A DNA stretch of 55,792 nucleotides from a virus (lineage: Duplodnaviria > Caudoviricetes), in the IMG/VR virus record IMGVR_UViG_3300048592_000081, positions 1 through 55,792 of that record; one strand, given 5' to 3'. Positions within the stretch are counted from its first letter, which is position 1. Every line of letters starts with the position of its first letter. Positions 9,094-50,173 of the stretch are shown piece after piece. Below the pieces are notes generated by a model that saw nothing but the letters and a program-made list of their open reading frames with translations, made no database searches and was not told the DNA's origin. The position numbers and the translations under genes are program-made.

Positions 9094-10032
9094 TCAGATC
9101 GTCTTGCGAGCCCAGGCCAGCTTGAGGTCGAGCATCAGCGTGTTGGTGTTGCGCTTCGGGATTGGCGGGTCGAATGACATCTTCCACTGGCCGAATCCAC
9201 CACTGAGGATGCTCATCATGTAGACATCGGCGTTGCCTTGGGAAATCGAGAATGTCGCGCGGTGGGTGATCTCGTAGCTGTTATCAACGTAGGTTCCAGC
9301 CGAATAAGTGCCAGATGCAATCTGAGTTGCGGTCGGCGTGGTCGTGTAGTCACCAAGAGTTCCTGAAGCGTAGATGATCGGGTAGATATCAGGGACTTCC
9401 GTATCCATTCCGCTTGAAGTGAATCTGGTGTAATAAAGACTCCCCCAAGAAGAGAATGCCGAAGGACGCAGAACCGTGTCGTAATCAATACCTGCAATGT
9501 TGACCACTGCGATGGTGTCGGTGATCTTAGGGTACAGCCGCAACTCGTAAATGACGTCCAAGAACTCGTCGCTGAGTACCGTGATTGCTGTCGGCTCGCC
9601 GAGCCCGTCGAGGATCAATGCGCGGCTGAAGCAGGACGTGTCGGAATTACCGATGCCGACTTCCGTGAGGTTGCCTGCCGCAACACCTTCGTTGAACCTG
9701 TAGGTCCATCGGACATACGCATAGTTGTCAGTCAGATCGACACCGCGCACGATTGACGTCGCGCTCGTCGTAGAGGCAATGCGGTTGTCCAGTTGGCTCT
9801 GCGTAGCAACAGGTGTCGACGTACCCGTTCCAACCATGCAACGCGACTGCGGGTAGATCGTGCCGAACGTGTTCAGCCCGTTGTTCAGGATCAGGTTCGG
9901 GAACCAGTCGGCAAGCACGCGACGCCGCCCTGTGCGCCTGCTGACAGCCTCCATGCGGAAGCGGCCGGCGAGACCGACGTTGGCCTTGCGGGCGATGGTG
10001 GGGCGGTCGCTACGGAAGATCATGGGAATCAC
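9094..10032 (-). CDS. virion structural protein (paralog A)
   Basis: GRFRMEA...FPNLILNNGLN...VGTG...F.EG.AAGNL.EVG...FSRALI.D..G.P; start codon uncertain. Confidence 0.85.
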   Translation of the reverse strand: MIPMIFRSDRPTIARKANVGLAGRFRMEAVSRRTGRRRVLADWFPNLILNNGLNTFGTIYPQSRCMVGTGTSTPVATQSQLDNRIASTTSATSIVRGVDLTDNYAYVRWTYRFNEGVAAGNLTEVGIGNSDTSCFSRALILDGLGEPTAITVLSDEFLDVIYELRLYPKITDTIAVVNIAGIDYDTVLRPSAFSSWGSLYYTRFTSSGMDTEVPDIYPIIYASGTLGDYTTTPTATQIASGTYSAGTYVDNSYEITHRATFSISQGNADVYMMSILSGGFGQWKMSFDPPIPKRNTNTLMLDLKLAWARKTI

Positions 10033-10051
10033 CTGTGCTTCTGAATGGACG

Positions 10052-11038
10052 TCAGACCCGACCCCACGACTGGCGGAACGTCAGGCTGAGAACCTTCGTA
10101 TTGTCCTTCGGGATCTTCGGAGTGAATGCAAATTGGTATTTCGGGTTGTCCCAAGACGGACGACGGAACGGGCAGACTGCACCGAGGCCACTGGCAAAGT
10201 TCGCTTCTGACAGAGAGAACTCGAACGTGCAATCCCGCTGAAGAGAATTGTCCACGTAAGGCAACATCGGCGGGGTCGTACCACGAGAAACACGACCTGC
10301 CGGAGCGGCTGTGCGTGCCCCTAGAATATTCGTTTCAGCAACGGCGCATGCCTGTGTTAGAGAAAATGCCATGGACAAATGATAATTTGATGACCACGGG
10401 CCTGAACTCGCATGAACATTATTTACGCTTGCCGCTCGACCCGTGTAGTCATAACTGGAACCAGAAATGTTGATGGCCCCCAAAACATCGTCTAGCGGGG
10501 GATAGGTTCTGAAGAAATACTCAACATCGAGAATGTCGTCTGCCAGTTTCTCGATTGTCGTCGGTGTGCCAACCCCATCAACCACGAGTGCTCGACTGAA
10601 CAAAGATCCTGACGCCGCCCATGCGACACCAACCTCGGCAATGGTCCCTGTGCCGACGCCTTCTGCGAAACGACGAAGCGTGCTCACTTCCGCGTAATCA
10701 GGTGGGCCGGCAAAGTATGTGTCGAGTTGTCCTGCTACTACCGAAGCATTTGATCCAGCGAGCCACGATGCGAGCGCCGAATCGGTGACAGCAGGTGCGG
10801 TGTTTCCACTGCCAATTTGAAAATGAGAACTGACGGTTTGACTTCCAAATGGCTGATCTTGTACTTTTCCGAGCCTATTCAGCCCAGCGTTCGTGATCAG
10901 GTTGTCGAACTCAAGAACCTTGTGCGGCGCACGGTCTCGCTTCATGAGCGAAAGGCGGAACCTACCGCTCACCCTGGTAGGAATGACGATCTCGCGCTTC
11001 GGCTCGATGATCTTGCGGGTGAAGACGATCAGACTCAT
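10052..11038 (-). CDS. virion structural protein (paralog B)
   Basis: ATG 11038 overlaps the upstream stop (ATGA); same motifs as 9094..10032. Confidence 0.85.
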   Translation of the reverse strand: MSLIVFTRKIIEPKREIVIPTRVSGRFRLSLMKRDRAPHKVLEFDNLITNAGLNRLGKVQDQPFGSQTVSSHFQIGSGNTAPAVTDSALASWLAGSNASVVAGQLDTYFAGPPDYAEVSTLRRFAEGVGTGTIAEVGVAWAASGSLFSRALVVDGVGTPTTIEKLADDILDVEYFFRTYPPLDDVLGAINISGSSYDYTGRAASVNNVHASSGPWSSNYHLSMAFSLTQACAVAETNILGARTAAPAGRVSRGTTPPMLPYVDNSLQRDCTFEFSLSEANFASGLGAVCPFRRPSWDNPKYQFAFTPKIPKDNTKVLSLTFRQSWGRV

Positions 11039-13074
11039 ACCAATGTGCCCCCAACGATGCTCGGCGTGACGTCCATCGCCTCGTCCGGCCATTCCTCGTA
11101 AGTAATCAGTTGCTCGTTCAGCCCGCCGCCAACGATGCTCGGCGTGACGCCCATCGCCTCGTCCTCCATCTCGTAGTCGAGCAGCGCGACACGCAGTTCG
11201 CCGGACACGAGGTCGTAAGACGTGATCTCGATGGACTCAGGCGGCCAATCACTGTACGTCGACAGGATGGCCCTCAGTTCCCCGTCAACGATATCCGCGG
11301 CAGGAGCAATGCCTTCGGTGTAGTACAACTTCTCTTTGAGTGCTGCTGCAACAATCGACGGATCAACCGTCATCTCGTCGAGCGGCGTGAGCGGATAGGG
11401 CTTGCTTGTGACGAAGCATTCAATGGGTGGAAGCCCGTCGTCGCGTGCCGTCTTGACGACGATACCGCTGCGCAGCACTGCGGAATCATCAACGAGGTGT
11501 TGGATCTCGAAAGAGTCCTGGTCGAAACGACTCGGCAAGACGAAGGTGATCCTCTCAATCTCGGCGAGCGCAATGGCCGGTAGCGCCACCGTGACGTAGA
11601 AACGCTCATAGTCGCCAACCTTCTCGACCGTGGCGATCGTGCGATAGAACGGCGTGCGGCCATCCTTGAACACGACGGCGAGCGTCAATCGAGCGTCCTG
11701 CGGCACCTTCAGGTAATCAGCAAAACCGGCATCGCGCGCATCGAAGAAGATCCCGCCGATGTCGCCGATCGGATAGATGTGCGCCACCCAGTCGGGAAAC
11801 CAGAAACACACGGCACGGCCGCGAGCGTTCTGCAGGAAGGCCCGCCATGCGACCATCTGGCGGCGGCCGAACGTGTGAACCGTGGCCCGCATGCCAATGC
11901 GTGTCCGCAGTGCCGGATCGGTGACATCGACCGTGCCAGTGTCGTTGTCGAGCATGAACACCGAGCGATCGAACTCGGCAGTCACGTTGTTCTGGCGGTC
12001 GATCTTGAATCCGAACAACGGGGCACAGGCGCCCCACGATCCTTCGGTGATCCCCTTGAACGGCTCTTTCAACTCGAACCGAGCTTGCAGGTTGCTCGTG
12101 TCGTCGGTCAGGTGATTGAACGGCGTGGCGTCGAGCACGCGAGCCACGCGCAGCGGCATGATCTTCGCCCCGATGCCCCATGTGCCGACAGGTGCCGATG
12201 CGAATGTCAGCGTGTCGGTTCCGTCGTATCTTGCGCTGATCTCAAGGATCTCGTAGTTCGCCTGATTGACGTACACCACGACGAGATCGCCGACATTAAA
12301 CTCACGGTACTGCAGCGTCTCGGTCGGGAAGGTCAGCGTCGAGGCGAGAACCGTGCTCAACGGGTACTGTTCATGCCACAACGGGATAAGACATTCGTTC
12401 TTGCCGGTGCCCGTAAAGAAGTTGTCCAGGCGTGCCCGCAAGATTCCCTTGCGGAGAAACGAAGCCTCGAATGATCGGCGCGGATAGCGGCGAACCGATC
12501 GACGCTGCTCGACGTCGGCCTCGCTCGACAGCACGTCGGTATTCCAAGACAGTCGTTCGAGAATCCCGCCCGCCCAATTGGGCATGACCGAGAAGAACGG
12601 ATAGGTCAGGCGGGTGTCGCTGATCTCCGGGATCGAGGCATCGGGGACAGGTGCGGTGTCGAACACCCAGCCTTCACTGCCAGAGGCATAGACTAGTTTC
12701 CCGTACTGCCAGATCGAGAAAGCCACGTAGCACGATGACGTGCTCGTGCTCAGGTTCACGAGGATGATGTCGAGCCGCTTGCGCCCACGGGGGATGAAGA
12801 CGGTGTACTCGGCAACGCCGTCAGTCACCGTGTTGCTGAACAGCACTCGCCCGTTCTGCTGCTCGACCGAAGCGACCCAGGTGGCCGCGTCATCGACGTA
12901 GCACTTGATCGTGTAGACACCACCCTCGAAGTCAAACCACTTGGCGAGGTGGAATGTCGTGCGTGCCGCGGCAGTGCCGATAGGTGATGCGACCGAGATT
13001 GCCGTCTCGCCAGCCGTGAACTCCGCGTTCTGCGGCGCAGGAATGGCGAACTGAAAGGCAGCACCGACCGCCAT
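11035..13074 (-). CDS. distal tail (Dit-like) virion protein with C-terminal repeats
   Basis: Follows the tape measure gene; PNW.GG..ERL.W.T...EQRR..R..PRR motif. Confidence 0.8.
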   Translation of the reverse strand: MAVGAAFQFAIPAPQNAEFTAGETAISVASPIGTAAARTTFHLAKWFDFEGGVYTIKCYVDDAATWVASVEQQNGRVLFSNTVTDGVAEYTVFIPRGRKRLDIILVNLSTSTSSCYVAFSIWQYGKLVYASGSEGWVFDTAPVPDASIPEISDTRLTYPFFSVMPNWAGGILERLSWNTDVLSSEADVEQRRSVRRYPRRSFEASFLRKGILRARLDNFFTGTGKNECLIPLWHEQYPLSTVLASTLTFPTETLQYREFNVGDLVVVYVNQANYEILEISARYDGTDTLTFASAPVGTWGIGAKIMPLRVARVLDATPFNHLTDDTSNLQARFELKEPFKGITEGSWGACAPLFGFKIDRQNNVTAEFDRSVFMLDNDTGTVDVTDPALRTRIGMRATVHTFGRRQMVAWRAFLQNARGRAVCFWFPDWVAHIYPIGDIGGIFFDARDAGFADYLKVPQDARLTLAVVFKDGRTPFYRTIATVEKVGDYERFYVTVALPAIALAEIERITFVLPSRFDQDSFEIQHLVDDSAVLRSGIVVKTARDDGLPPIECFVTSKPYPLTPLDEMTVDPSIVAAALKEKLYYTEGIAPAADIVDGELRAILSTYSDWPPESIEITSYDLVSGELRVALLDYEMEDEAMGVTPSIVGGGLNEQLITYEEWPDEAMDVTPSIVGGTLV

Positions 13075-25934: not shown

Positions 25935-28900
25935 TCAGGCGAGCGCTTTCCCGAATTGGGCGAAATCGTAGGAGGATTTTAGCGAGTTCGCAAACGGCAC
26001 CTCTTTTTCAGGCTCTCGAACGAAGTCGTTCTTGTCCCACTCTGCAGCCCAGCCGGGCGGGTCTGCCCAATTCAGGTTCTCGACTCGCAGCAGTTCGGAC
26101 ACGCACAAGCCGATGCAGTAGTAGGACAAGTCCCATGCCTCGTTCCGCAGCCCAGCGGTGTTCTGCCAACCCTTGTCGGTGCGGGTCTCGGCGCAAAGCT
26201 CGGCGAACCATGAATCACTCATCCAGTCGGGGAAGCGGTACATCCCCTTACCCGGTTCAAGACAGTCGAGCCGACCATCGAGGTCGTCCTTGATCAAGTT
26301 CGAGTTGAGCATCAGCAACGGAATGTCGCCTCGCGCGCCCGACTTCATGTCCTTGCGCTGACTGTCAGGGTAGGTGATGCGGGTACGAGGATGGTTCGGC
26401 AGCGTGTCACCCTTCAGGAGAATGAAGCGACGATGCTTGTTGTCCTCTCGCAACTTGCGGTAGTACGAATAAGCCATTGAAGTCACGCCGGATCGACCGC
26501 CCGAGTCGCAACCGACGAATCGGATGCTCATGAGACGCCCCGACCCGTCGTCGAGTTCATATTCCTTCTCGATGACGTGTTCGGTGATCTCGTCCCAATC
26601 CTCAAGGTAGGTGTTCGGCTTCACCCACAGATGCTCACCGTCGTCATCGGTGCGCTTTGATTTCCGAATGTCGTAGCGATCCACAAGCACCATGTCAAAC
26701 TTGATGCCAGGAAGAATGCCGAAGACCTGTACGACGAACATATTCTTCTGAACGTCGATGACCGCCACGAGGAAGCGAACACCTTCCGGCACCTTGCGTT
26801 CGGCGAACTTCTCGGCTCGCGCCTTGAGCACTTCCGGCAATCGCGTGTCGTTCGCAGACTTCGGGTAGTAGGGCTCACCGAGGTCGTTGTTGTAGAACTT
26901 CTTTAACGCCTCTTCCGAGCCCGTGCGTTGGTACTCGTCGTTTGCGTTCAGGTAGTTCTCAACGAGGGCTCGCCACGACACGAACGCGGCGGCGACACCA
27001 CGAAGCCAAAAGGAAGCGATGCTCGTGCGAGGGGACGGCCCGAAGATCCGTCCATCCTTGTCGACCCCCTGGGTGTCCTTGACCCAAATGCCGAACATCT
27101 GCATGTCCTCCCGGTAGTCCGGGTGGATCTTCTCGCCGCAATGCGGGCAGACCATGCGAACCGTAGACGCCTTGTCCATGTTCGTCCCGGCAAGGTCGTT
27201 GTCCCATGTCAGGTGTGTGAACTTGCCCTCGAAGTATTGATCGCAGAACGGACAAGGCCAGAACCATCGGCGACGATCGCCGCGGTTGTAGAGCTTCAGG
27301 ATGCCTTCGCACGGAGGCGCCTCGTGTGGTGTCTGCGGAATCCACTTCGGGTTTGACACCTCGCGCGATGGCGACGACTCCGCGACCGTCATGGCGTATG
27401 AACCGAACGTCGTCGTTCGTTTCGACGCAAGGTCGAACGGCTCGCCGTCACCGTCGATGTCATCGGGCATGCGGTCGCGGTCGGTCAACACGATCCGGCC
27501 GATTGGTTTGCCTGCCAGTTGGCTCGGCGTCGGCCAGGAAAGTGTCAGCAGCATGCCCGACGTGTACTGTTTGTCGAATCGGTTGTCAGCGTCGGCAGTC
27601 GGCAGCAGCATCTCGCCCACTTCGGGCGTGTGGCGATGCAGTCGGTCAATACGACGGATGCCGAAGTCGCGCGCATCGAGCATCGTCGGACAAACCACCA
27701 TCATGTCCATCGGATCAACCTTGACCGAATAGAGAATGCCATTGATGATGAGCGAATCCGTGTTGTGGGTCGGGACCATCTGCCGTCCTGCCAAGAATAG
27801 ATGGCTCGGGGCGTCGACTTGAATGCAGCGAACCGGAACCGAATCGACAGGAGTTACGTTGACTATGCGGCGACGCCCTGTGTGTGTAGGTCGCTTTTTG
27901 ACTGTTCTGCTGCGCAACTTCAACATTTGCCGTTCAAGATTGAACGGTCTTTGCTCAGACGTAGGAGTCCAAGCGATCTTCCAGCTTTTCTGTCCTTGCT
28001 TCTTCTCACCTTTGTACGTGTAGGTTGGAACGCTCTCACGAACATGCGCCTTGATACCAAGGCCATTGCATAGTTGCAAATAACCGTCGCGCAAGCAGTC
28101 TTCGCTAGTTGAAAACTCAACAGTAATATTGTTTGCCACGCAACCATCGGTGTCATTCAACCCTCGAAGCAACTCCCATCTTTGTTCAATTGATGCGCGC
28201 TGATAAATCTGAGGAATGCGTTTGCTAACCGGCCATTCGGCGGTACTGAGAAGACCAATGCAATTTAAAGTTTTCCTAAACGTGTGAGTCAGTCTATTAG
28301 ATGGGTTCGGATCGATCGTCACCGTGTATGACGCCTGAGTCACGTCATGTTTTGATTCAACGACATAGCCTGCCGACTCAATTTTTTTCGTAATCGACGG
28401 CATATCCTCATCTCGTAGCGTGAGATAGTTTCCGTACGAATGTCCATCGCCGAGCCAAATGCCAAGCATGTACGGATCAATCGGAAGATCTATCTTCGGT
28501 AAGTCAAGAGCTTTTGCGTTTTTTATCGCGTATCTGTTCCTAATCTTGCGGTACTTGAAAGTCTTGGCAATTTCATCCGTGGTTAGAACACGAGCGCATT
28601 CACGAACGTCGTCGTCGCATAGCCATCGGTGTTCAGCATCGGCGACGATTGATGTCGCGTCGTCAAACACAACTCGATAGCACTGATGGTTGTGCATGAC
28701 CTCAGTTGCGAGTGTCACGCGAGTCGGCTTACCTTCGTCACTAAAAATGACATCCCCGACACGAAGATCTCCCATAGTCGTCCACCCTGACGGCGTAGCT
28801 ATCCGCGTTCTGATGTCGAGTGCTTTGGCCGACTGAGCTGGGCCGACGAAGATCATCCCCGTGTAGCGCCTTGAAATGAACGTGTCCATCGGCTCGACCA

Positions 28901-29087
28901 TGTACGGGACGGTCGAGTTCTTCCACTTGCCGACATAAGCGCCGGGCTGATTGATGTAGCGGTACTTCTCCGCAGCCTGAGAAACGCTGACGTTCTCAGG
29001 AGGCGTAAGCATCTGAGCGAGATCACGAATGATCTCGCCGACCGACTTATAGGTCTTCTTCGCTTTCGGTTTCCTGATGTTCGCCAT
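25935..29087 (-). CDS. terL: terminase large subunit (lambda GpA family), intein-containing
   Basis: PYM.EPM, GPAQSAK/T P-loop, ESSP, GD.RRW..PCP.C, IDVQ, DSGG, RNEAWD motifs. Confidence 0.95.
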   Translation of the reverse strand: MANIRKPKAKKTYKSVGEIIRDLAQMLTPPENVSVSQAAEKYRYINQPGAYVGKWKNSTVPYMVEPMDTFISRRYTGMIFVGPAQSAKALDIRTRIATPSGWTTMGDLRVGDVIFSDEGKPTRVTLATEVMHNHQCYRVVFDDATSIVADAEHRWLCDDDVRECARVLTTDEIAKTFKYRKIRNRYAIKNAKALDLPKIDLPIDPYMLGIWLGDGHSYGNYLTLRDEDMPSITKKIESAGYVVESKHDVTQASYTVTIDPNPSNRLTHTFRKTLNCIGLLSTAEWPVSKRIPQIYQRASIEQRWELLRGLNDTDGCVANNITVEFSTSEDCLRDGYLQLCNGLGIKAHVRESVPTYTYKGEKKQGQKSWKIAWTPTSEQRPFNLERQMLKLRSRTVKKRPTHTGRRRIVNVTPVDSVPVRCIQVDAPSHLFLAGRQMVPTHNTDSLIINGILYSVKVDPMDMMVVCPTMLDARDFGIRRIDRLHRHTPEVGEMLLPTADADNRFDKQYTSGMLLTLSWPTPSQLAGKPIGRIVLTDRDRMPDDIDGDGEPFDLASKRTTTFGSYAMTVAESSPSREVSNPKWIPQTPHEAPPCEGILKLYNRGDRRRWFWPCPFCDQYFEGKFTHLTWDNDLAGTNMDKASTVRMVCPHCGEKIHPDYREDMQMFGIWVKDTQGVDKDGRIFGPSPRTSIASFWLRGVAAAFVSWRALVENYLNANDEYQRTGSEEALKKFYNNDLGEPYYPKSANDTRLPEVLKARAEKFAERKVPEGVRFLVAVIDVQKNMFVVQVFGILPGIKFDMVLVDRYDIRKSKRTDDDGEHLWVKPNTYLEDWDEITEHVIEKEYELDDGSGRLMSIRFVGCDSGGRSGVTSMAYSYYRKLREDNKHRRFILLKGDTLPNHPRTRITYPDSQRKDMKSGARGDIPLLMLNSNLIKDDLDGRLDCLEPGKGMYRFPDWMSDSWFAELCAETRTDKGWQNTAGLRNEAWDLSYYCIGLCVSELLRVENLNWADPPGWAAEWDKNDFVREPEKEVPFANSLKSSYDFAQFGKALA
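27762..28823 (-). mobile_element. 354-aa intein with LAGLIDADG homing endonuclease (class-3 signature)
   Basis: Starts ALD..T.I.TP.G; DAEHRW block B; LGIWLGDG and LRGLNDTDG; VRCIQV block F; ends PTHN with +1 Thr. Confidence 0.95.
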
Positions 29088-32070: not shown

Positions 32071-32351
32071 TTCAAGATCGCCCTCGCCTGATCCAGATCA
32101 TCCACGCAGTAGACCTCGCACGCCTGCGCTCGCAAGAGTCGCGCCACGTAAGCCTGCTGTGCTCGCGCGTCCTCGTCCTTCCGCTTGACCTCGATCCAGA
32201 CATGCCTGCCGTCCCGCACGGCGTAGACGTCGGGCATGCCGCGACGCGACGGGCTCGTGATCTTGACGGCGAACCACCCTCGGATGTGCGCGAAGTCGAT
32301 GATGTCCGACTGAATGTCGGATTCGAGTTCTTTCGGTGGCTCGAATCTCAT
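32067..32351 (-). CDS. VRR-NUC domain nuclease
   Basis: LES.IQ, G.PD, WIEVK, Q motif; ATG 32351 overlaps the polymerase stop. Confidence 0.9.
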   Translation of the reverse strand: MRFEPPKELESDIQSDIIDFAHIRGWFAVKITSPSRRGMPDVYAVRDGRHVWIEVKRKDEDARAQQAYVARLLRAQACEVYCVDDLDQARAILK

Positions 32352-33394
32352 CTCATTTCCTTCTTGCACTTGCCGCACATGGCACGTCCCTCGGGTTGTT
32401 CGTCCGTTTCGATCCAGGAGTCACGGATGGACTCACGGCCCTTGCCGCACAGCGCAATGTCACGTTTGACGTCGACAACGTGGTAGGTCTTCTGATCGGG
32501 CAAGCGGGCGATGATCCGGCCGCTTCGGCCGCGAAGTCGCGGGTCGTCCGTCTTGGCGCCAACGTCCTGCAGGATGGCGTATGCCTCGCGGATGTAATGG
32601 TCGTAGTCAATGTCGTGCGGCACGTAGGGCAACAGTTCCATCATTGTCTTCGCTCCGATGGTCTGCGGGACACTGTTGCCGTTCTTCTTGTACTTGAAGC
32701 CGCCTCGGACGTCCTTGCTGTAGTACCAGCGCAGAGCTTTGCCGATCTCTATTCCATCCTGATCAACGGCACCGCCAGTGACACGACGAACGGTCAGGAA
32801 CTTGCGAGGGTCGGCACACCACTCGATCGTTTCCTCGATCGGCGTGCCGTGCTTCAGGTACTCGACGACAGCCTCGGTGCAGATGTCCATGTCGGGGTTC
32901 TTCTTGAGCCCCGCTGCTCCGGGTAGACCACGGCCGGATGCCGTGAAAGCGCCTTTCGTCTTGACCTTGCCGTCCTTGTCGATTGCCACGTAGCTGTTCA
33001 CGTCGCGGCTATGAAGCGAACGGTACTCGGTCTCTTCGAGGCTGAAGCCCGTGCGCCGCTCCCATTCCAAGCACGCCTGATTGAACTCATCGCGGCAATC
33101 CCGAGGAACCTTGGTGACAAAGCCGTCTGTGTTGGCACTGACGACATTGATCATTCGTTCTTCGAGTTCTTCGATCAACATGAGGATCGACAACTGCCCG
33201 GTCAGCGTTGTCTGGATCATCAGGTTCGGGCTGTAGAGCGCCGAGAATGGCGAGCCGAATTTACCGAATGAGCCGTTCAACGTCAGTTTAAGAGACTCCG
33301 CAGTGTTCTTAGCCTCCATTTGTTCGGCCTCAAGTTGAGCGAGTTCAACTTCTAGACGAGCAATCTCAGAGCGCAATGAATTTGCGTCGCGCAT
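32348..33394 (-). CDS. family-B DNA polymerase, C-terminal subunit
   Basis: Motif B KLTLNGSFGK, motif C variant SANTDG, DVNSY, K.KG; own GAGGAGG SD. Confidence 0.9.
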   Translation of the reverse strand: MRDANSLRSEIARLEVELAQLEAEQMEAKNTAESLKLTLNGSFGKFGSPFSALYSPNLMIQTTLTGQLSILMLIEELEERMINVVSANTDGFVTKVPRDCRDEFNQACLEWERRTGFSLEETEYRSLHSRDVNSYVAIDKDGKVKTKGAFTASGRGLPGAAGLKKNPDMDICTEAVVEYLKHGTPIEETIEWCADPRKFLTVRRVTGGAVDQDGIEIGKALRWYYSKDVRGGFKYKKNGNSVPQTIGAKTMMELLPYVPHDIDYDHYIREAYAILQDVGAKTDDPRLRGRSGRIIARLPDQKTYHVVDVKRDIALCGKGRESIRDSWIETDEQPEGRAMCGKCKKEMR

Positions 33395-34034
33395 CTCGTG
33401 CCTCCTCTAACGTCTGAAAGTAGCCTAAGTATTCACGGACACCATCTCTTGTTGCTCTGACAACAAAACCACCGTCTTTATGGGGAGTAATACCTCGCTC
33501 GCCAGTTGAAGACGAACACCAGACCGTTTCATTCGAGATCGCAGTTACCGCATCATCCCGATTCGCAAAGAACTTGCGCTCAAAATTATTACGAGCTTTG
33601 AACGCAAGTTCAGCAGAATCAAATCTTCCAATTCGATAACGCACATGCTCAAAGTCCATGCGAGCCTCAAATCTCCCCTTTATTTGAACAACTCCGGTGA
33701 ATCCACTTGTATTGTTCTTAAACTTCCTGCGGTTCAAACATTGTGTGGTTCTCGTCGCCCACTTGCAATTGGCAGGCGAATATCCCTTGTCATTGTCCAT
33801 GCGCTCAATAGTGAAATTTTCACTTGGGCGAGCACCCATGTCTTGCACAAATTTCTCAAAGTGTTTCCAGCGCGGTGCAACCTTAATTCCACGGCCACCG
33901 TAGTTCTCATAGCCGGGGAAGTTCGGATTTGTGCATCGCTGCCACATGCCCGACCAACAGTAGTACAAGGGGTGGTCTCTAGGCGCATAGCCCTCAATCG
34001 GCACGTTGCGCGGGTGGTAAGTTCGGTTTGGCAT
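33366..34034 (-). CDS. HNH homing endonuclease with AP2-like DNA-binding domains
   Basis: W..M..RC.N, YGGRGI, TIERMDNDKGY.P.NC.WAT, NTSGFTGV; low GC; overlaps both polymerase halves. Confidence 0.92.
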   Translation of the reverse strand: MPNRTYHPRNVPIEGYAPRDHPLYYCWSGMWQRCTNPNFPGYENYGGRGIKVAPRWKHFEKFVQDMGARPSENFTIERMDNDKGYSPANCKWATRTTQCLNRRKFKNNTSGFTGVVQIKGRFEARMDFEHVRYRIGRFDSAELAFKARNNFERKFFANRDDAVTAISNETVWCSSSTGERGITPHKDGGFVVRATRDGVREYLGYFQTLEEARDARRKFIAL

Positions 34035-35175
34035 CTTCAATCCTTCGCAACTCGGCCTTCAAAGCGGCAATGCGCTTTTTCACTTCGTCAATCTTCTTCC
34101 CGATTGTACCGATACTCTTCTTCGCCGCGATGCGCCGGGCAAAAATGCGGCTGTAGATTTTCAGGAAGTGCGGGCCAATGTGCTTCGGGTACAACTCGCT
34201 CCGAAGAATGATCATCGGATAGTAGGAGGTCACGTCACGATCGAGAAGGACAAACTCATCGTCGCTGTAGTGACTGGATCGCGTCTCCGACGAATGCAAG
34301 CCTCCAATCCCCATGCGGTAAACCGAGCGCCCCATCTCAATCTTCAAGTCCTTCAGATAGTCGGGCATCTTGACGACGCCCGCCCGATCGACGACAAACT
34401 TGGTTCGACGAATGCCGTCGAGTACCTCGCGCATCGTCGGGGTCTGGAACTGAATGAAGTCCGGCACCTCGTAGTTGAAATAGCCGGGCTCGACGTCAGG
34501 CGCGTACAACTTTCGCCCCGTCGCCCGCTCGATCTCGGTCTTGATCACAGCCTCCGCGATCTGAGCGTCCGACTTGCTGCGCAGATCCACGCCGTACTCA
34601 ACGCTCATCATCGCGCGCAACTGCAACTGCGCCTTCAACTCGTCAAGCATGTCATGCGTCACATCCAGGTCGTTGCCGTGGTACGCGCGCAGCACCTCGA
34701 TCTTGTTCTCGTCAATGCGGTCATCCACCTCGATCGGCAGTTCCTGCATCTTCCGAGAGTGCATGCGGCCGGCGTAAATCTTCAAGCTCGGCATCTGCGG
34801 AGCACCGGGGCTCACGGACATGAGATCGATGCAATCGAAGAAGTCCGGGACCGTCAGCCCGAGCCTGTCGAGCATCGTCCACCAAGGCACTCCGTACTGA
34901 ATCAATTCATCGCTGGCACGCTTGAGTTCGCCGTTCGTGGCGCCACTCATCGCGTACAGGATCATCGGAATGTCGTAGGCTTTGAAGTTGAAGCCGACCA
35001 CGCGCCACTTGCGGAAGATCGTCGCAATACTCTTGCGGTCAAGCGGGCTGTCATTCCACTTCTCAAAGACGCGCACGCGACCGTCAGCGGCAGACTTGAA
35101 GCCGATTGACCAATAGTTGACGTAGCACTCCGTATCGCAGAGAGCAATGGGGCGGTCTTCGGTGTAGTTGTTCAT
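33994..35175 (-). CDS. family-B DNA polymerase, N-terminal subunit (exonuclease plus motif A)
   Basis: DTE (ExoI), GFN...YD (ExoII), Y..ND (ExoIII), GGLHS, DVTSYYP (motif A); start uncertain (35175 or 35202). Confidence 0.9.
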   Translation of the reverse strand: MNNYTEDRPIALCDTECYVNYWSIGFKSAADGRVRVFEKWNDSPLDRKSIATIFRKWRVVGFNFKAYDIPMILYAMSGATNGELKRASDELIQYGVPWWTMLDRLGLTVPDFFDCIDLMSVSPGAPQMPSLKIYAGRMHSRKMQELPIEVDDRIDENKIEVLRAYHGNDLDVTHDMLDELKAQLQLRAMMSVEYGVDLRSKSDAQIAEAVIKTEIERATGRKLYAPDVEPGYFNYEVPDFIQFQTPTMREVLDGIRRTKFVVDRAGVVKMPDYLKDLKIEMGRSVYRMGIGGLHSSETRSSHYSDDEFVLLDRDVTSYYPMIILRSELYPKHIGPHFLKIYSRIFARRIAAKKSIGTIGKKIDEVKKRIAALKAELRRIEDAKPNLPPAQRAD

Positions 35176-35179
35176 CGCC

Positions 35180-35211
35180 GAAACAAGAACGCCCGGCATC
35201 ACCCGGGCGTT
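35180..35211 (-). terminator. intrinsic terminator after SSB
   Basis: AACGCCCGG-N6-CCGGGCGTT stem followed by CTTGTTTC. Confidence 0.6.
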
Positions 35212-45277: not shown

Positions 45278-45663
45278 ATGGCCCGGCCGGCGCCGGGTCG
45301 ACCCCCTGCGGGAAATACCCCCACCCCTATGCTCACCGTGCGCACGCCCGCGCACACGTAAGGGGCGCGAGGCCCAGGTGCAAGCTCGGCCGATCGCCTG
45401 CAGGCCCGCCACCTGGGCAGAAAGCACGAGCACCATTCCTTACTTTGGAGACCCAGCCCGTTCCTAGTTTTCTGGCTATCACCAGAACCAAATAACGGGA
45501 ACGACTCGGGCCAGCGGCTCACCCAGGTCTTGCACCACTGGCCGAGAGTCACGATGCAGGTTCTCGACCCTGGCGTTAAAGACAATGCTTTTTCTTACTT
45601 TGCAGGGTCAGCCCGTTCCAAATTTTCGGGCAAAAGTCACAATGAAAATTCTCGCCTGACCCG

Positions 45664-45691
45664 TTGACAAGGCTTTCCGTTGTGCTACAGT
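45664..45691 (+). promoter_or_regulatory. sigma70 promoter of the rightward accessory arm
   Basis: TTGACA-N16-TACAGT with extended TGn. Confidence 0.8.
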
Positions 45692-45730
45692 CCCGACCTA
45701 TGCACTGCACACATCAACCAAGGACGATCA

Positions 45731-46117
45731 ATGTCTGACCAGGACCAAGGGTTCGATCCCTCGCCCCACCTTCTCGCCAAGTTCGAGTTCATCATTCAAC
45801 GGCTCATCGCCACCAACAAGATCGACGACATCATGTCCACCACGCAACGCAAGTCCGGCAGCTTCGCTTCTCAGGTTCTCGACCTCGCGCCCGGCGAGTG
45901 CGCTTCCAAGGCCCGCATCTGTGACCCGACCATCGAGGTCAGCCGGCTCAAGGACGAACTGCCTGAACTGCGTCAGCAACTCCGCAACTCCGTCGCACCG
46001 GCCGTCCGCAACGCGGCCGAGAAGACTGGCGCGTCCTACGGTGTCGAGGTGGGAGAGACCATCACGCCGAGCGGCAACCTGTACCTCGTCGCCATCGTGA
46101 CCCGCAAGGCCGAGTGA
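45731..46117 (+). CDS. hypothetical protein
   Basis: AAGGA SD and ATG 45731. Confidence 0.75.
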   Translation: MSDQDQGFDPSPHLLAKFEFIIQRLIATNKIDDIMSTTQRKSGSFASQVLDLAPGECASKARICDPTIEVSRLKDELPELRQQLRNSVAPAVRNAAEKTGASYGVEVGETITPSGNLYLVAIVTRKAE

Positions 46118-46131
46118 TTCTCACAAAGCGC

Positions 46132-46160
46132 TTGCAGTCAAACGAATGACGCAGTACATT
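46132..46160 (+). promoter_or_regulatory. candidate sigma70 promoter
   Basis: TTGCAG-N17-TACATT in an intergenic gap. Confidence 0.55.
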
Positions 46161-46262
46161 CCACTCATGAGCAGCACCCGATCAGTCATCCCGCTACAGG
46201 GAAATGACGACGGGCATGAGCCTTGTCTGACGGCTCACCACCCTCTGCGGGAACACACCACC

Positions 46263-46544
46263 ATGAACACTCCGACGTTCAAGCACACACCTGGACCTTG
46301 GCACACGAGTCCGAACATCAAGTCTCATAGTGTTTGCGATCAGTACGGTACGACCGTGGCTGTCGTCGGCAACGCCTTCGGTGTCTCGCATGAACGCCGC
46401 CTTGCTGACGCACGGTTGATCGCCGCTGCGCCTGACCTCTTGGCGTCGCTTAAGGCGCTGGTTGTGATCGCGGGTACTAACGGCGTCGATCCTTGGGCCA
46501 TGCGGCACGCCCAATCTGCCATCGCCAAAGCGGAAGGTCTGTGA
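46263..46544 (+). CDS. hypothetical phage protein (HTPGPW...ARLIAAAP family)
   Basis: Common phage motif pair KHTPGPW and ARLIAAAPDLL. Confidence 0.8.
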   Translation: MNTPTFKHTPGPWHTSPNIKSHSVCDQYGTTVAVVGNAFGVSHERRLADARLIAAAPDLLASLKALVVIAGTNGVDPWAMRHAQSAIAKAEGL

Positions 46545-46840
46545 TGACCGTTTACAACATCGAAAAGGTCAAGCCGCCACCCAAGAAGCGCGGCATCAAG
46601 CCCGGAACAATTCTCGGCCCGAGGGTAGGTTCACGCCCTTGGCACTTGCTCAATCTGTCTGTCGGCCAGTCCTTCTACGTTGAGGTGGAAAAGGACATGG
46701 CATCTACCATGGGCCATCTGTCGAACAACATCTTTCACAACGACCTGCAGGGCAAGATCGAGTTGCAGGCATTGCTCGCCATTCATCCAAAGACACGCGA
46801 GGTCATCGAACTCGTTCGCGCTCTGAGGGTGAAGGAATGA
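46544..46840 (+). CDS. hypothetical protein (possible DNA-binding)
   Basis: TGATG coupling; basic N-terminus and L.VGQSF motif. Confidence 0.7.
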   Translation: MTVYNIEKVKPPPKKRGIKPGTILGPRVGSRPWHLLNLSVGQSFYVEVEKDMASTMGHLSNNIFHNDLQGKIELQALLAIHPKTREVIELVRALRVKE

Positions 46841-46922
46841 ACCCGCTGGCCCACGATCCCGATTGGGACGATCCGAACGGGGCGGCGAGGCAATTCCTCT
46901 CGCTAAACCGAGAAAGAACAAG

Positions 46923-47192
46923 ATGCCTACACCATCGCTGAACATCTCATTGCAGCAAGCCCTGAAGACCGCAGGGGATGCAGGCGACATCAAGTCCTTG
47001 CGAGCCCTCGCCATCCAGGAGAGCCAGCGTGCGCAGGAATACCTCGATCTGCTCGCCGCAGTGGTCATGTCCTGCCGAGGTGCTGTGTACGTGCCGAAAA
47101 ACTACAAGGACGTCTATCCTGTTCGCCGGCTTGCAATGAGCGCCATTGGCGACACGATCAAGATCGAGGACGCTACGAGGATCGGCAAGTGA
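46923..47192 (+). CDS. hypothetical protein
   Basis: ORF in the co-oriented cluster; start uncertain. Confidence 0.6.
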   Translation: MPTPSLNISLQQALKTAGDAGDIKSLRALAIQESQRAQEYLDLLAAVVMSCRGAVYVPKNYKDVYPVRRLAMSAIGDTIKIEDATRIGK

Positions 47193-47308
47193 CGCGGCCC
47201 ATCGCGCCACCCAACAGGCCGTTCCCCACGTACAAGGGACAGCCGCTCCCCCGCCGCCGTGTCAAGCGTGCACTGCTGCCAACCGAACCTGCGAGATGGT
47301 GACGTGAC

Positions 47309-47863
47309 ATGCTTGAAACCGTAGCCATTGCCGCTGTCTGCTCGTGGGCCAACCCAGGCGCCGCCCCTTACCGGCGAGGCCCGACGACCAACACCGTCGC
47401 TGCAGCCGTGGCTCGCTACGGCTTCCCGCTCGACGTGCAAGTCGAACTTGTCCGCAAGGAACGGCGGATCGAACCGGATGCTGTCGTGACGATCACCAAG
47501 CAGGGCATGTACGCGCCCAACGGTACAGCCACCAACCTGCGTGACATGCACTGGCGCAATGGGCTGTGCCGCGGAACCGTGGACGTCAGCAAGTGGACAG
47601 AAGGCCATAGCGAGACGGCCCTTGTCTACTGCGTGCGCGAGCACTGCATCGCCGTGCCGATCGTATGCGGCAACGTGAGCCGGATCGACTTCAAGCCTCA
47701 TCCTCCGAAAGAGCCTCTGTTCCGCGCGTGGGAGAACCCCAAGCACGAGCCGCCGCCGTGGCTCAAGAAGGTGCCGCCGCACCGCGGGACGATCCCCGAG
47801 CCCTCAACGTTGCTGCTCGTGAGTGCGGCTGGGGTGATGGCGAGAATCAGAAGGAGGAAGTGA
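47309..47863 (+). CDS. MHFG-family-like PEP-CTERM protein
   Basis: CSW.NPG..PY, RDMHW, C, W, LVYC..HCI.VP.VC.NVSRI, then IPEPSTLLL + hydrophobic segment + RIRRRK C-terminus. Confidence 0.88.
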   Translation: MLETVAIAAVCSWANPGAAPYRRGPTTNTVAAAVARYGFPLDVQVELVRKERRIEPDAVVTITKQGMYAPNGTATNLRDMHWRNGLCRGTVDVSKWTEGHSETALVYCVREHCIAVPIVCGNVSRIDFKPHPPKEPLFRAWENPKHEPPPWLKKVPPHRGTIPEPSTLLLVSAAGVMARIRRRK

Positions 47864-48348
47864 TGCACAAGATAGGCGTTACTTTTGAAATGCTCAAGTC
47901 ATTGGGCGAGGTCTCCATTCGTCTCGGCACCAGCGACAAGTTCGTCGATGTTGCACTGCAATGGGCTGAGGGAGCGAATCAAGAGATCGCCAAGTTGCGG
48001 GCCGATAAGGAAGCCGCAATAGCCAATGCTGACCGTTATCATTTTCCTGCACTACTCCCTCGGTTGGCACTTCGTCAGCATCTACTTCTGATGACAGCAA
48101 AACTAATCCCCGGGTATGTCGTCACCTGGAAGCAACCCTTGCGAACGCAGACGATCTTCAGCGCAGTCGTGCGGCCATTGGTCGAGCCCGACAAGTACGG
48201 TCCCGAGGTCGCTCGGGTGCGCGGCTTCGTGTCGCAGCAGCAAGAGGTCATCGATCGGGCTCACCGCATTGCCGATGAACTGCAGGCCGGCAACTACCGT
48301 GGCCCACGGACGATCAATCTGACCAAGGCGCCGAGGGGGAAGGTGTGA
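47863..48348 (+). CDS. hypothetical protein
   Basis: AAGGAGG SD; TGATG coupling. Confidence 0.7.
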   Translation: MHKIGVTFEMLKSLGEVSIRLGTSDKFVDVALQWAEGANQEIAKLRADKEAAIANADRYHFPALLPRLALRQHLLLMTAKLIPGYVVTWKQPLRTQTIFSAVVRPLVEPDKYGPEVARVRGFVSQQQEVIDRAHRIADELQAGNYRGPRTINLTKAPRGKV

Positions 48349-48713
48349 ACAAGAAGACTGCCGTCACCGCCGCCCGCGCCGCGCTCGATGCGAGGCAGGT
48401 TACCCCCATGTCTCAGCCGAACAGGAAAATCGCCTACACCGCCAGCGACACGCTGCGCAAACTCGGGTATCAATGGGATGAGGCTGCGGAAGCGTGGAGG
48501 CTCGCCGCTGCACCGCCAGTGCCGCAAACGCAGCGCCCGGTGCGGCTGACGGATGAGCGGATCGACGCGGCACACCGGACAGAGAAGCTAGCCATCATCG
48601 CGCTCATGCACCACGACATCAGTGTAGAGAACTTCACATGGGCTCTGCGGCTACTGGCCCGCGCCGTCGAGGCCGAAGTGCTGCGCCTGAACGGCATTGG
48701 AGGCGACGTATGA
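48345..48713 (+). CDS. hypothetical protein
   Basis: GTGA coupling; L..LGY.W and LTDE.I...ARAVEA motifs common in betaproteobacterial phage ORFs. Confidence 0.75.
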   Translation: MNKKTAVTAARAALDARQVTPMSQPNRKIAYTASDTLRKLGYQWDEAAEAWRLAAAPPVPQTQRPVRLTDERIDAAHRTEKLAIIALMHHDISVENFTWALRLLARAVEAEVLRLNGIGGDV

Positions 48714-48970
48714 CGCTGACACCTTTCCGAGGCCGCTGCCATACCTGCGGTCACGATCACGATGCTGAAGGGCAGACGCTGCACGACATCCTGACCACCG
48801 TCGAACCCAGCGCGCGCATCGAAGCCGACCGCGCCGCGATGCAGATGGCGTTGGAAGCGCTGACGCTTGCAGGCGAAAAGATGCCACTTGACGAGCCGTG
48901 GACAGACCGCGATGCCATCATCAAGGCGCGTATTGCCGCCATAGCAGCACTCCGGGAGCGGCTGAAATGA
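48710..48970 (+). CDS. hypothetical protein
   Basis: GGAGG SD; AM..ALEAL...AI.ALRERL motif. Confidence 0.7.
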   Translation: MTLTPFRGRCHTCGHDHDAEGQTLHDILTTVEPSARIEADRAAMQMALEALTLAGEKMPLDEPWTDRDAIIKARIAAIAALRERLK

Positions 48971-49200
48971 ACTCAAAGAATGTCCGCGGAATCACCTTGC
49001 ACTACGAGGATGACACGTCCGAGACCCATCTACTCGTCAAGCCGAGCCCCGCGTTCCATGACGAGTTCAACGAACTGCGGCCACTCGTTGCTGCCGCCAA
49101 GAAACGTAAGGCCGAGAAAATGAATGACGACCCTTGGACAATTCGGCTTATCGTTGCCGCCATTCTTCTCACGATCGCACTCGTCCTTGTGACGCTTTGA
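48967..49200 (+). CDS. small protein with C-terminal TM segment
   Basis: ATGA coupling; ends LIVAAILLTIALVLVTL. Confidence 0.65.
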   Translation: MNSKNVRGITLHYEDDTSETHLLVKPSPAFHDEFNELRPLVAAAKKRKAEKMNDDPWTIRLIVAAILLTIALVLVTL

Positions 49201-49210
49201 GGGACAACCA

Positions 49211-50173
49211 ATGACAACCAACCCGTACAAGAACTTCATCCCGTACCTCGTCAGTTCGGACGCCAAGACGGACGACCTGGATCTCGATCTCCATCGATCC
49301 AAGGAGCCGTCAGGCGGCCAGTGGCGCAGCATCGGACTGATCAATGCGCTGCCGGGCGAAGGTCTTCTCGTCGACCTGAGCGACGCCGGTAAGTTGATGG
49401 CGGTCCGCTTCAATGAACGCATCTTGCCCGGCAAGGTGCGAGACGAACACCTAGGCAAGCGTGTCGCCAAACTCGAACAGATGGAAGGGCGCAAGCTCTC
49501 GAAGAAGGAGTACGCGCAACTCCGCGAAGAGATCGAGTTCGACTTGCTGCCTCGCGCGTTCATCCGACGAACCGTCGTTCCGGTCATCTTCACCAAGATC
49601 GGTACGTCCGATCACCTGATGATGGTCTGCACATCCTCGCAGAAGCGTGCCGACGACGTGGTTGCCGTGTTGACTGCAGTCTTCGGCGAGACTCTGAAGC
49701 CATGGAAGATTGAAATGGGCAGGCCGATCGCCGGGAGTCTGACGACACTGGCTTGCGACGGCTTCCTTTTCAACGAGCACACGCAAGAGGAATGCTCGTT
49801 CTATCCGACCGACGCAGCCGTGCTCAAGGGCAGTGGCAAGAAGACCATTCGCATCAAGGACAAGGACATCCAAGAGCACGATGTTCAGACCCTCCTGAAG
49901 CAGTCCTACGCAGTCACGGAACTGGCCTTGCGGTATGGCGAGGATGAGGACGTTCCCACGCTCACCTTCACCGTGAATGACAACTTCGTATTCAAGCGTG
50001 TGACCCTGCCCGACGTCCAAGTGACGCCGCTCAAGGAGGACGCATTCGGGTTCGCCCTGTTGTGCGTTCAGACCTACTTCAGAATGATCAAAGACATCGT
50101 TGCGGCATTCGGCGGAATGGCGCAACGCCAGAAGCCTTCAACTGAGACTGTTGACGAGGACGACGAACTGTGA
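49211..50173 (+). CDS. rdgC: recombination-associated protein RdgC-like
   Basis: ERILPG.V, E..EGR.L.KKE...L.EE....LLPRAF, SSQKRA, V.ELAL, FGG motifs. Confidence 0.88.
   Translation: MTTNPYKNFIPYLVSSDAKTDDLDLDLHRSKEPSGGQWRSIGLINALPGEGLLVDLSDAGKLMAVRFNERILPGKVRDEHLGKRVAKLEQMEGRKLSKKEYAQLREEIEFDLLPRAFIRRTVVPVIFTKIGTSDHLMMVCTSSQKRADDVVAVLTAVFGETLKPWKIEMGRPIAGSLTTLACDGFLFNEHTQEECSFYPTDAAVLKGSGKKTIRIKDKDIQEHDVQTLLKQSYAVTELALRYGEDEDVPTLTFTVNDNFVFKRVTLPDVQVTPLKEDAFGFALLCVQTYFRMIKDIVAAFGGMAQRQKPSTETVDEDDEL

Follow-up and report, generated by a model that had tools for sequence, protein, structure and literature searches.

When the genome of a tailed phage holds a gene for a protein bearing a bacterial surface-sorting signal, two questions arise: whether the gene belongs to the phage at all, and what such a product might do in an infected cell. 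Among bacteria that build biofilms or flocs, exosortase/PEP-CTERM sorting is found widely, and we know of no established acceptor or mechanism for it, nor of functions for most of its cargo. The gene considered here was recognized from the ORF list and by the profiles NF038119 and TIGR02595; it occupies positions 47309..47863 (+ strand, stop codon included) and encodes an MHFG-family PEP-CTERM protein of 184 aa. The window, by which we mean the whole stretch of DNA that was analysed, is 55,792 bp long and constitutes a single IMG/VR virus record.

The phage and the setting of the gene

The window is a whole genome, with 46 identical bases at both ends, and its record carries a CheckV completeness of 100% with direct terminal repeats. 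PHROG scans of the 66 ORFs reveal a siphovirus layout, in which the genes for lysis, tail, tape measure, head, portal, terminase, helicase, DNA polymerase, SSB and exonuclease lie on the - strand (~0.4-38.3 kb), while the primase gene followed by many small ORFs lies on the + strand (38.5-55.1 kb). The nearest cultured relatives, as judged from the major capsid protein and primase (~40-51% aa identity), are Chi/Nazgul/AH2-type siphoviruses, namely Pseudomonas phage vB_Pae-SS2019XI, Salmonella phage Chi, Burkholderia phages BcepNazgul and AH2, and Achromobacter phage phiAxp-2. These phages are virulent, and the same PHROG scans found no match to integrase families among the 66 ORFs, in keeping with the apparently lytic phage of a preliminary description of this locus.

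Several side observations can be made on the structural and replication genes. The large terminase (1,050 aa; 25938-29087, - strand) contains a LAGLIDADG domain at residues 304-356 that interrupts the gpA ATPase domain; the remainder of this domain starts at residue 443, and the insert is probably an intein. The DNA polymerase is encoded in two ORFs (32351-35202, - strand) matching positions 45-396 and 395-656 of phrog_1252, so that the break falls at a single point, and an HNH endonuclease ORF (33369-34040) lies between the two. The split would reflect an intron or the insertion of a homing endonuclease. Side by side at 9097-11092 (- strand) are two paralogous genes for tail fibres, both of which match phrog_4176.

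Relatives of the phage, at about 95% identity, were found in read runs from two different studies, one of a bioreactor (X1) and one of activated sludge (X7). In the activated-sludge run, a contig of 2,382 nt aligns to 45600-47761, shows 105 differences and joins the upstream phage genes to the MHFG gene as far as residue 151. In the bioreactor run, separate pieces cover 45600-47038 and 47178-47831, and parts of 47832-49200 are without cover in the runs compared. These two runs are in line with the floc connection suggested earlier; 16 further runs, which contain a 0.05-0.25 share of the words, were left out of the habitat evidence. The composition of the gene is also that of its surroundings, with a GC3 of 0.79, like the remaining phage genes, and a GC of 0.60 within a genome-wide range of 0.53-0.63. 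The MHFG gene is a genuine gene of a genuine complete phage.

The gene appears to belong to a phage operon. A sigma-70-like promoter sequence (TTGACA, 16 nt, TG-TACAGT; 10/12 positions) is located at the strand switch (45664..45691, + strand) and is likely to be the start of the rightward operon that holds the MHFG gene, although this is a consensus match only and one such site was found in 45.2-49.3 kb versus 0.7 expected. At the downstream end (47852..47865, + strand), an AGGAGG ribosome-binding site lies in the codons for RRRK, and the following gene begins with an ATG (47863-47865) that overlaps the TGA stop, an arrangement that argues for translational coupling with the next gene within a phage operon. 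Many proteobacterial PEP-CTERM genes are preceded by a sigma-54 site, according to the study that defined the PEP-CTERM/EpsH system (Haft et al. 2006; PMC1569441). A sigma-54 promoter was considered for the MHFG gene and rejected: no site of this type is present in 47193-47308, and the genome-wide count was 28 matches versus 28.4 expected. Two RNA-library runs (X15 and X17) gave cover confined to 49209-49300, beyond the MHFG gene. A small ORF farther along (48898-49197, + strand), with no family match, has a strongly hydrophobic C-terminus, WTIRLIVAAILLTIALVLVTL, and its product would be a second tail-anchor-like membrane protein of the same operon.

The protein and its sorting tail

The preliminary description had pictured a Cys-rich MHFG-type domain with MHW in place of the usual motif, a Pro-rich linker and a complete sorting signal, and the analysis upheld all three elements. 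NF038119 (MHFG family PEP-CTERM protein) matches residues 10-131 with 105.2 bits, against a cut-off of 100 (E 7e-30), and the alignment ends at position 120, having begun at position 3, of a 260-position profile; positions 121-260, representing a long linker and tail, have no match. TIGR02595 (PEP_CTERM) matches residues 162-184 with 24.8 bits (cut-off 16), and PF07589 matches C-terminal residues 161/162-184 with 22.5 bits (cut-off 20.7). In a six-frame search of the whole genome, the MHFG ORF was the single PEP-CTERM match (28.1 bits, E 3e-7).

The protein thus consists of four parts, all encoded on the + strand. An N-terminal peptide, MLETVAIAAV (47309..47338), places 10 residues before the conserved Cys11. 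The MHFG domain (47336..47701), delimited by the HMM, by alignments and by an AlphaFold2 model, contains five conserved Cys residues and a DMHW motif (47543-47554). Next is the Pro-rich linker (47702..47791), in which short-branch alignments show the branch-typical motif EP-x-FR-x-W-E/D; 9 of the 31 residues from 132 to 162 are Pro. The sorting signal (47792..47860) is composed of TIPEP, 13 hydrophobic residues and RIRRRK, so that the tail reads IPEP-STLLLVSAAGVMA-RIRRRK, STLLLVSAAGVMA being the 13 residues. This tail has the three parts by which PEP-CTERM is defined, namely a PEP motif, a hydrophobic stretch of about 14 residues and a basic cluster (PMC1569441).

Conservation was assessed in 150 aligned family members. 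Residues C11, M80, W96, C120 and N122 are invariant, and W13, P16, G17, H81, C87, C108, C113 and the PEP residues (P163, E164 and P165) are at least 90% conserved; each of the five Cys residues (11, 87, 108, 113 and 120) is therefore in one of these two classes of column. All of the conserved residues of the MHFG domain are present in the phage protein: Cys-x-W, PG, DMH-F/W, the four further Cys, W96 and N122. The family motif is DMHF(G) and the phage protein has DMHW, a Phe-to-Trp change that also occurs in other short-branch members. Judging from sequence, the protein is best called a diverged subfamily of NF038119 rather than a functional equivalog.

An AlphaFold2 model built with 150 sequences (pLDDT 90.1, pTM 0.74) has two helices (26-52) packed on an antiparallel sheet (58-130) and a C-terminal helix at 167-183; the linker is less confident, with a pLDDT of ~70. 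Fold searches gave a best E of 0.097 against the PDB (Foldseek) and of 0.047 against BFVD, a profile search of PDB sequences gave a best E of 0.49, and VIA-align found no chain at Z of 5 or above among 48,161. The best VIA-align chains were RelE/ParE-like toxins, with 66 residues aligned at 4.7 A (Z 3.1), and from these searches we draw no fold assignment and no functional clue. The matches in the ESM Atlas were to PEP-CTERM clusters only (score 0.92), and neither PHROGs nor PADLOC has a family for the protein. A homodimer prediction for residues 9-135 scored 0.03 versus a mark of 0.42.

As had been remarked from the sequence alone, the complete 55,792-bp genome lacks an exosortase gene, with no match to PF09721 at E<=1. 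The phage would be expected to borrow the exosortase of its host.

Relatives of the gene and the unusual N-terminus

A profile search against 1.84 billion representatives returned 1,160 clusters at E<=0.001, 598 of them at E<=1e-30. Chromosomal copies were found at seven loci (L006-L012) in MAGs that are Rubrivivax-type or otherwise betaproteobacterial. These proteins share with the phage protein (38-42% identity) the same domain, the five Cys, DMH, W96, N122 and the PEP-helix-basic tail, but they score 239-259 bits with NF038119 rather than 105, are 244-306 aa long with long Pro/Gly-rich linkers instead of 184 aa with a linker of about 30 residues, and have 18-19 rather than 10 residues before the first Cys. 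Their genes are found in housekeeping contexts, such as purB-pyrF-MHFG-LapG-LapD (L007), in contrast to the phage operon of the window. At the latter locus (L007:10723-14312, from a betaproteobacterial MAG) the genes downstream of MHFG encode LapG-LapD-LapG and a type I secretion ABC transporter, and this neighbourhood of genes for c-di-GMP-controlled adhesin release hints at a biofilm role for the host MHFG copies. Exosortase genes were present in all three of the bacterial genomes with chromosomal MHFG that were checked. The family is patchy, with NF038119 detected in 4 of 301 sampled genomes from the order of one Rubrivivax-type genome.

The preliminary description knew of no described phage example and suggested an HMM search across phages. 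In the main texts of the literature searched, no published PEP-CTERM or MHFG gene of a tailed phage was found. One preprint refers to a mobile element of Dehalococcoides that has a PEP-CTERM domain, and one further paper on PEP-CTERM deals with host genes only. Searches of 50,697 deposited phage records with three family queries likewise gave no match at E<=0.01. The window gene is nevertheless not alone among viral sequences, in that pattern scans of IMG/VR uncovered relatives in 22 other contigs of 4 kb to 369 kb. Leaving out L042, which encodes the same protein as L041, 20 of the 21 contigs examined (all except L053) have phage-family neighbours, which include genes for portal, capsid, tail, endolysin, terminase, integrase, DNA polymerase and primase.

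Some of these contigs deserve separate mention. L034 and L038 share the SSB (phrog_112) and exonuclease (phrog_69) families of the window, and L038 also shares the primase (phrog_1156) and phrog_1273; both are therefore relatives of the window phage, yet they carry a different MHFG variant. In L001 (8686-9966), the gene just 5' of the MHFG copy belongs to a PurZ-type family (phrog_1211) of the 2-aminoadenine pathway, and DNA ligase and RNA ligase genes are near. In the 369-kb, jumbo-phage-sized contig L005 (9680-9967), a homologue of ribosomal protein S21 is directly 5' of the MHFG gene, and genes for Hsp20, a thymidylate synthase interrupted by an HNH endonuclease, and the queuosine pathway are nearby.

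A tree against host copies, put forward earlier as a check, was built in two ways. A quick IQ-TREE analysis splits the family with an SH-aLRT of 94: the window falls on a 49-row side together with 26 of the 30 proteins that start 5 or fewer residues from the conserved Cys, and the chromosomal copies fall on the opposite, 125-row side. The 22 phage rows of a 192-row FastTree require 18 label changes, at least 10 of which are forced by well-supported branches, arguing that the phage copies are scattered over the family and form no single clade. In this tree the window sits in a 36-row set (local support 95) that contains, at the 50% identity level, 30 representatives with lengths of 157-217 aa, and all 30 have the five Cys and the C-terminal helix. 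The segment before the first Cys is 0-5 residues long in 20 of these representatives, 6-12 in six and 13-19 in four, and none has 20 or more.

Six members of the 36-row set have readable DNA context, and none of the six shows signs of a bacterial chromosome. The window is a phage genome, L013 is a phage contig, L021 has a phrog_6647 gene upstream as in the window, and L022 adjoins an endolysin gene, while the contexts of L017 and L019 are uninformative. (L023 and L024/L025, considered below, come from the same metagenome scan and lie outside the set.) This branch occurs on DNA of 35-64% GC. The Burkholderiales-type host suggested earlier is not supported by these data: the nearest chromosomal homologues, in Rubrivivax-type MAGs, are only 38-42% identical and are located on a different branch.

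The most unusual feature of the protein is its N-terminus. According to PMC1569441, 97% of PEP-CTERM proteins carry signal peptides. The peptide MLETVAIAAV has no Lys or Arg and carries Glu3, making it uncharged-to-acidic, and by inspection neither its length nor its charge suits a usual Sec leader, although weak export may occur. A longer N-terminus is ruled out by an in-frame TGA (47300-47302) within the Shine-Dalgarno-like GGTGA (47298..47302, + strand) that lies 6 nt 5' of the ATG; between this TGA and the ATG are the codons CGT and GAC and no others. Ten residues without Lys or Arg, combined with an upstream in-frame stop, make Sec export followed by exosortase processing doubtful, and the processing by host exosortase assumed in the preliminary description, which presumes such export, is weakened to the same extent.

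This oddity extends well beyond the window. The segment before the first Cys was classified in 162 family representatives: it is 20 residues or longer in 42, and includes Lys or Arg in 40 of these; it is 13-19 residues in 62, with Lys or Arg in 5 and neither in 57; and it is 6-12 residues in 29 and 0-5 residues in another 29, with Lys or Arg in none of the former and one of the latter. Most MHFG members therefore lack Lys and Arg before the first Cys, and many start only a few residues from it, a puzzling feature of an NCBI family annotated as exported PEP-CTERM proteins. The Rubrivivax chromosomal copies start MSLTLSTVLVAATVTLPSC, with the start fixed by upstream stops, and the 18-19 residues that precede the Cys in the chromosomal copies are uncharged. 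Among the 21 phage-borne copies with a readable 5' end, classified from their frames with three GTG starts inferred, 5 have ordinary leaders with Lys or Arg (L001, L003, L039, L040 and L047), 13 have 9-17 residues without either, and 3 have 5 residues or fewer. The presence of short N-termini free of Lys and Arg across the family, including the chromosomal Rubrivivax copies, argues that the odd leader is not peculiar to phages; MLETVAIAAV is, as far as these sequences indicate, the short end of a family continuum rather than a phage-only trait, and it may work by a mechanism that is not understood. For some members a leader is excluded by the DNA itself: L013 has 61 in-frame codons upstream of its MAC start with no ATG, GTG or TTG, and L017, L023 and L024/L025 have stops 1-7 codons upstream of the start. 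A lipoprotein Cys was considered as a family feature and rejected, in that members with ordinary leaders have no lipobox (...AHANSC, ...SYAAPVC); the window has AAVC.

These N-termini bear directly on whether the product is a conventional exosortase client, as the preliminary description mainly supposed. On this reading the short N-terminus would suffice for Sec export, the tail would be cleaved and the domain would end up on the surface or in the EPS, leading to receptor masking, superinfection exclusion or a change in flocs. In its favour, the PEP-CTERM signal has remained intact, even leaderless relatives retain the five Cys, as would be expected of disulfides in an exported domain, the chromosomal copies with their uncharged N-termini are presumably exported, and the 5 of 21 phage-borne copies with ordinary leaders imply that some phages surely export theirs. 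Against this stand the 10 residues before the Cys with Glu3 and no Lys or Arg, the stop that blocks a longer form, and the close branch members that start MAC, MDC or MIDC without any hydrophobic stretch. On balance we regard conventional display as rather unlikely for the window protein.

Possible roles of the product in infection

The 90% cluster of the protein contains 18 members from several sources. The 15 aligned ones share 91-96% identity with the window copy and retain all key residues, with an invariant IPEP and, in the N-terminal peptide, invariant M1, E3 and V5-V10. The window copy differs from the 14 other listed members, which are 188 aa long, in having a membrane helix 4 residues shorter, and this shortened helix could be impaired. 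The conserved P163-E164-P165 across the family and the invariant IPEP within the cluster may be read as evidence of selection on the tail.

The best explanation of the locus is that an apparently virulent siphovirus living in sludge has long carried the MHFG gene, a diverged member of a bacterial family, as an accessory gene. With regard to function, we tentatively favour an unconventional or poor client, or decoy, that occupies or diverts the exosortase pathway of the host, to which we assign a probability of roughly 0.45. Conservation of the tail argues that it still meets an exosortase and the vestigial leader argues against ordinary export, which together make a poor or unconventional client likelier than an efficiently displayed, ordinary surface protein. 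The promoter near 45.7 kb would drive transcription of the gene together with that of the small genes of the early region, and the C-terminal helix would hold the product in the host inner membrane. The conserved PEP-CTERM tail could then meet the host exosortase, so that the product would occupy or divert the pathway as a poor or unconventional client and, in the infected cell, surface and matrix proteins that depend on exosortase would be altered. Several findings count against the poor-client reading: the five Cys are invariant in leaderless proteins, which fits exported disulfides or a metal site equally well, the helix of the window copy is 4 residues shorter, short N-termini free of Lys and Arg occur throughout the family, and the fold offers no hint of function.

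A helix at the extreme C-terminus and the lack of a leader would also suit a plain tail anchor that acts independently of exosortase, leaving the domain in the cytoplasm, where its Cys, His and Met residues (in the 150 sequences M80 never varies and H81 is at least 90% conserved) perhaps hold a metal, to act on a host target. Moreover, the Glu of PEP is replaced (PAP, PVP or PEC) in 5 of 18 aligned leaderless relatives. Bacterial tail-anchored proteins with a single helix at the extreme C-terminus and no N-terminal signal do exist, as reported in PMC3087755. However, in the PEP-CTERM/EpsH model the PEP motif and passenger domain are periplasmic and the basic tail is cytoplasmic (PMC1569441), and the RIRRRK that follows the helix in the window protein, cytoplasmic by the positive-inside rule, along with its PEP motif points to this topology, opposite to that of a tail-anchored protein. 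The IPEP is also invariant in the 15 aligned close relatives, and in family members that have ordinary leaders this domain is plainly an exported one. A tail anchor of this kind thus seems clearly unlikely.

Similarly improbable, in our estimate, is a more specific proposal, in which the leaderless phage branch as a whole would consist of membrane-resident decoys that misdirect the host exosortase, or the host MHFG proteins, and so block the sorting of matrix and floc proteins. Were it true, the EPS matrix might be loosened for release of progeny, or a receptor removed, and the branch would be the first case of a virus antagonizing protein sorting of the sortase-like kind.

Less probable again is that the gene is a neutral, host-derived passenger drifting toward decay, with loss of the leader and the helix deletion as its marks. 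The 4-residue deletion is indeed confined to the window copy among the listed cluster members, and the NF038119 score of 105.2 bits is barely above the cut-off, as compared to 239-259 for chromosomal copies. This account is difficult to reconcile with an open reading frame, 15 aligned members that are 91-96% identical with key residues kept, the retention of the five Cys and C-terminal helix in all 30 branch representatives, a GC3 that matches the phage, and retention of the gene in relatives from two studies. Finally, a chimeric contig, the concern raised in the preliminary description, is ruled out by the independent activated-sludge contig that spans the upstream phage genes and the gene, by closure of the genome on its 46-bp terminal repeat, by uniform GC and by coupling of the gene to the next phage gene.

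The poor-client reading can be set beside several known systems. To our knowledge, nothing is known of a role for the MHFG domain in flocs. Superinfection-exclusion and receptor-blocking proteins such as T5 Llp use ordinary signal or lipoprotein leaders; the MHFG protein can be likened to them by general features only, as a small envelope-directed protein of a lytic phage encoded outside the structural genes. With the floc-related PEP-CTERM proteins of Zoogloea and Aquincola (PepA, NF033554; PMC9850573) it shares the sorting signal and the activated-sludge habitat, but its passenger domain is unrelated and has no match to NF033554. With the PEP-CTERM/EpsH system as presented in PMC1569441 it has in common the three-part C-terminal signal, together with the joint occurrence of the family and exosortase in 3 of 3 bacteria checked; unlike the components of that system, the window gene has no exosortase in the same genome, no sigma-54 site and, judged by inspection, no ordinary signal peptide, and is not in a single-gene operon.

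A small, well-folded cargo domain kept by several unrelated types of phage would offer a compact handle on the exosortase pathway. Often leaderless, the domain would also provide a natural test of what an exosortase needs in the signal and of whether Sec is required, and the MHFG protein is a candidate route by which phages may alter the flocs of activated sludge.
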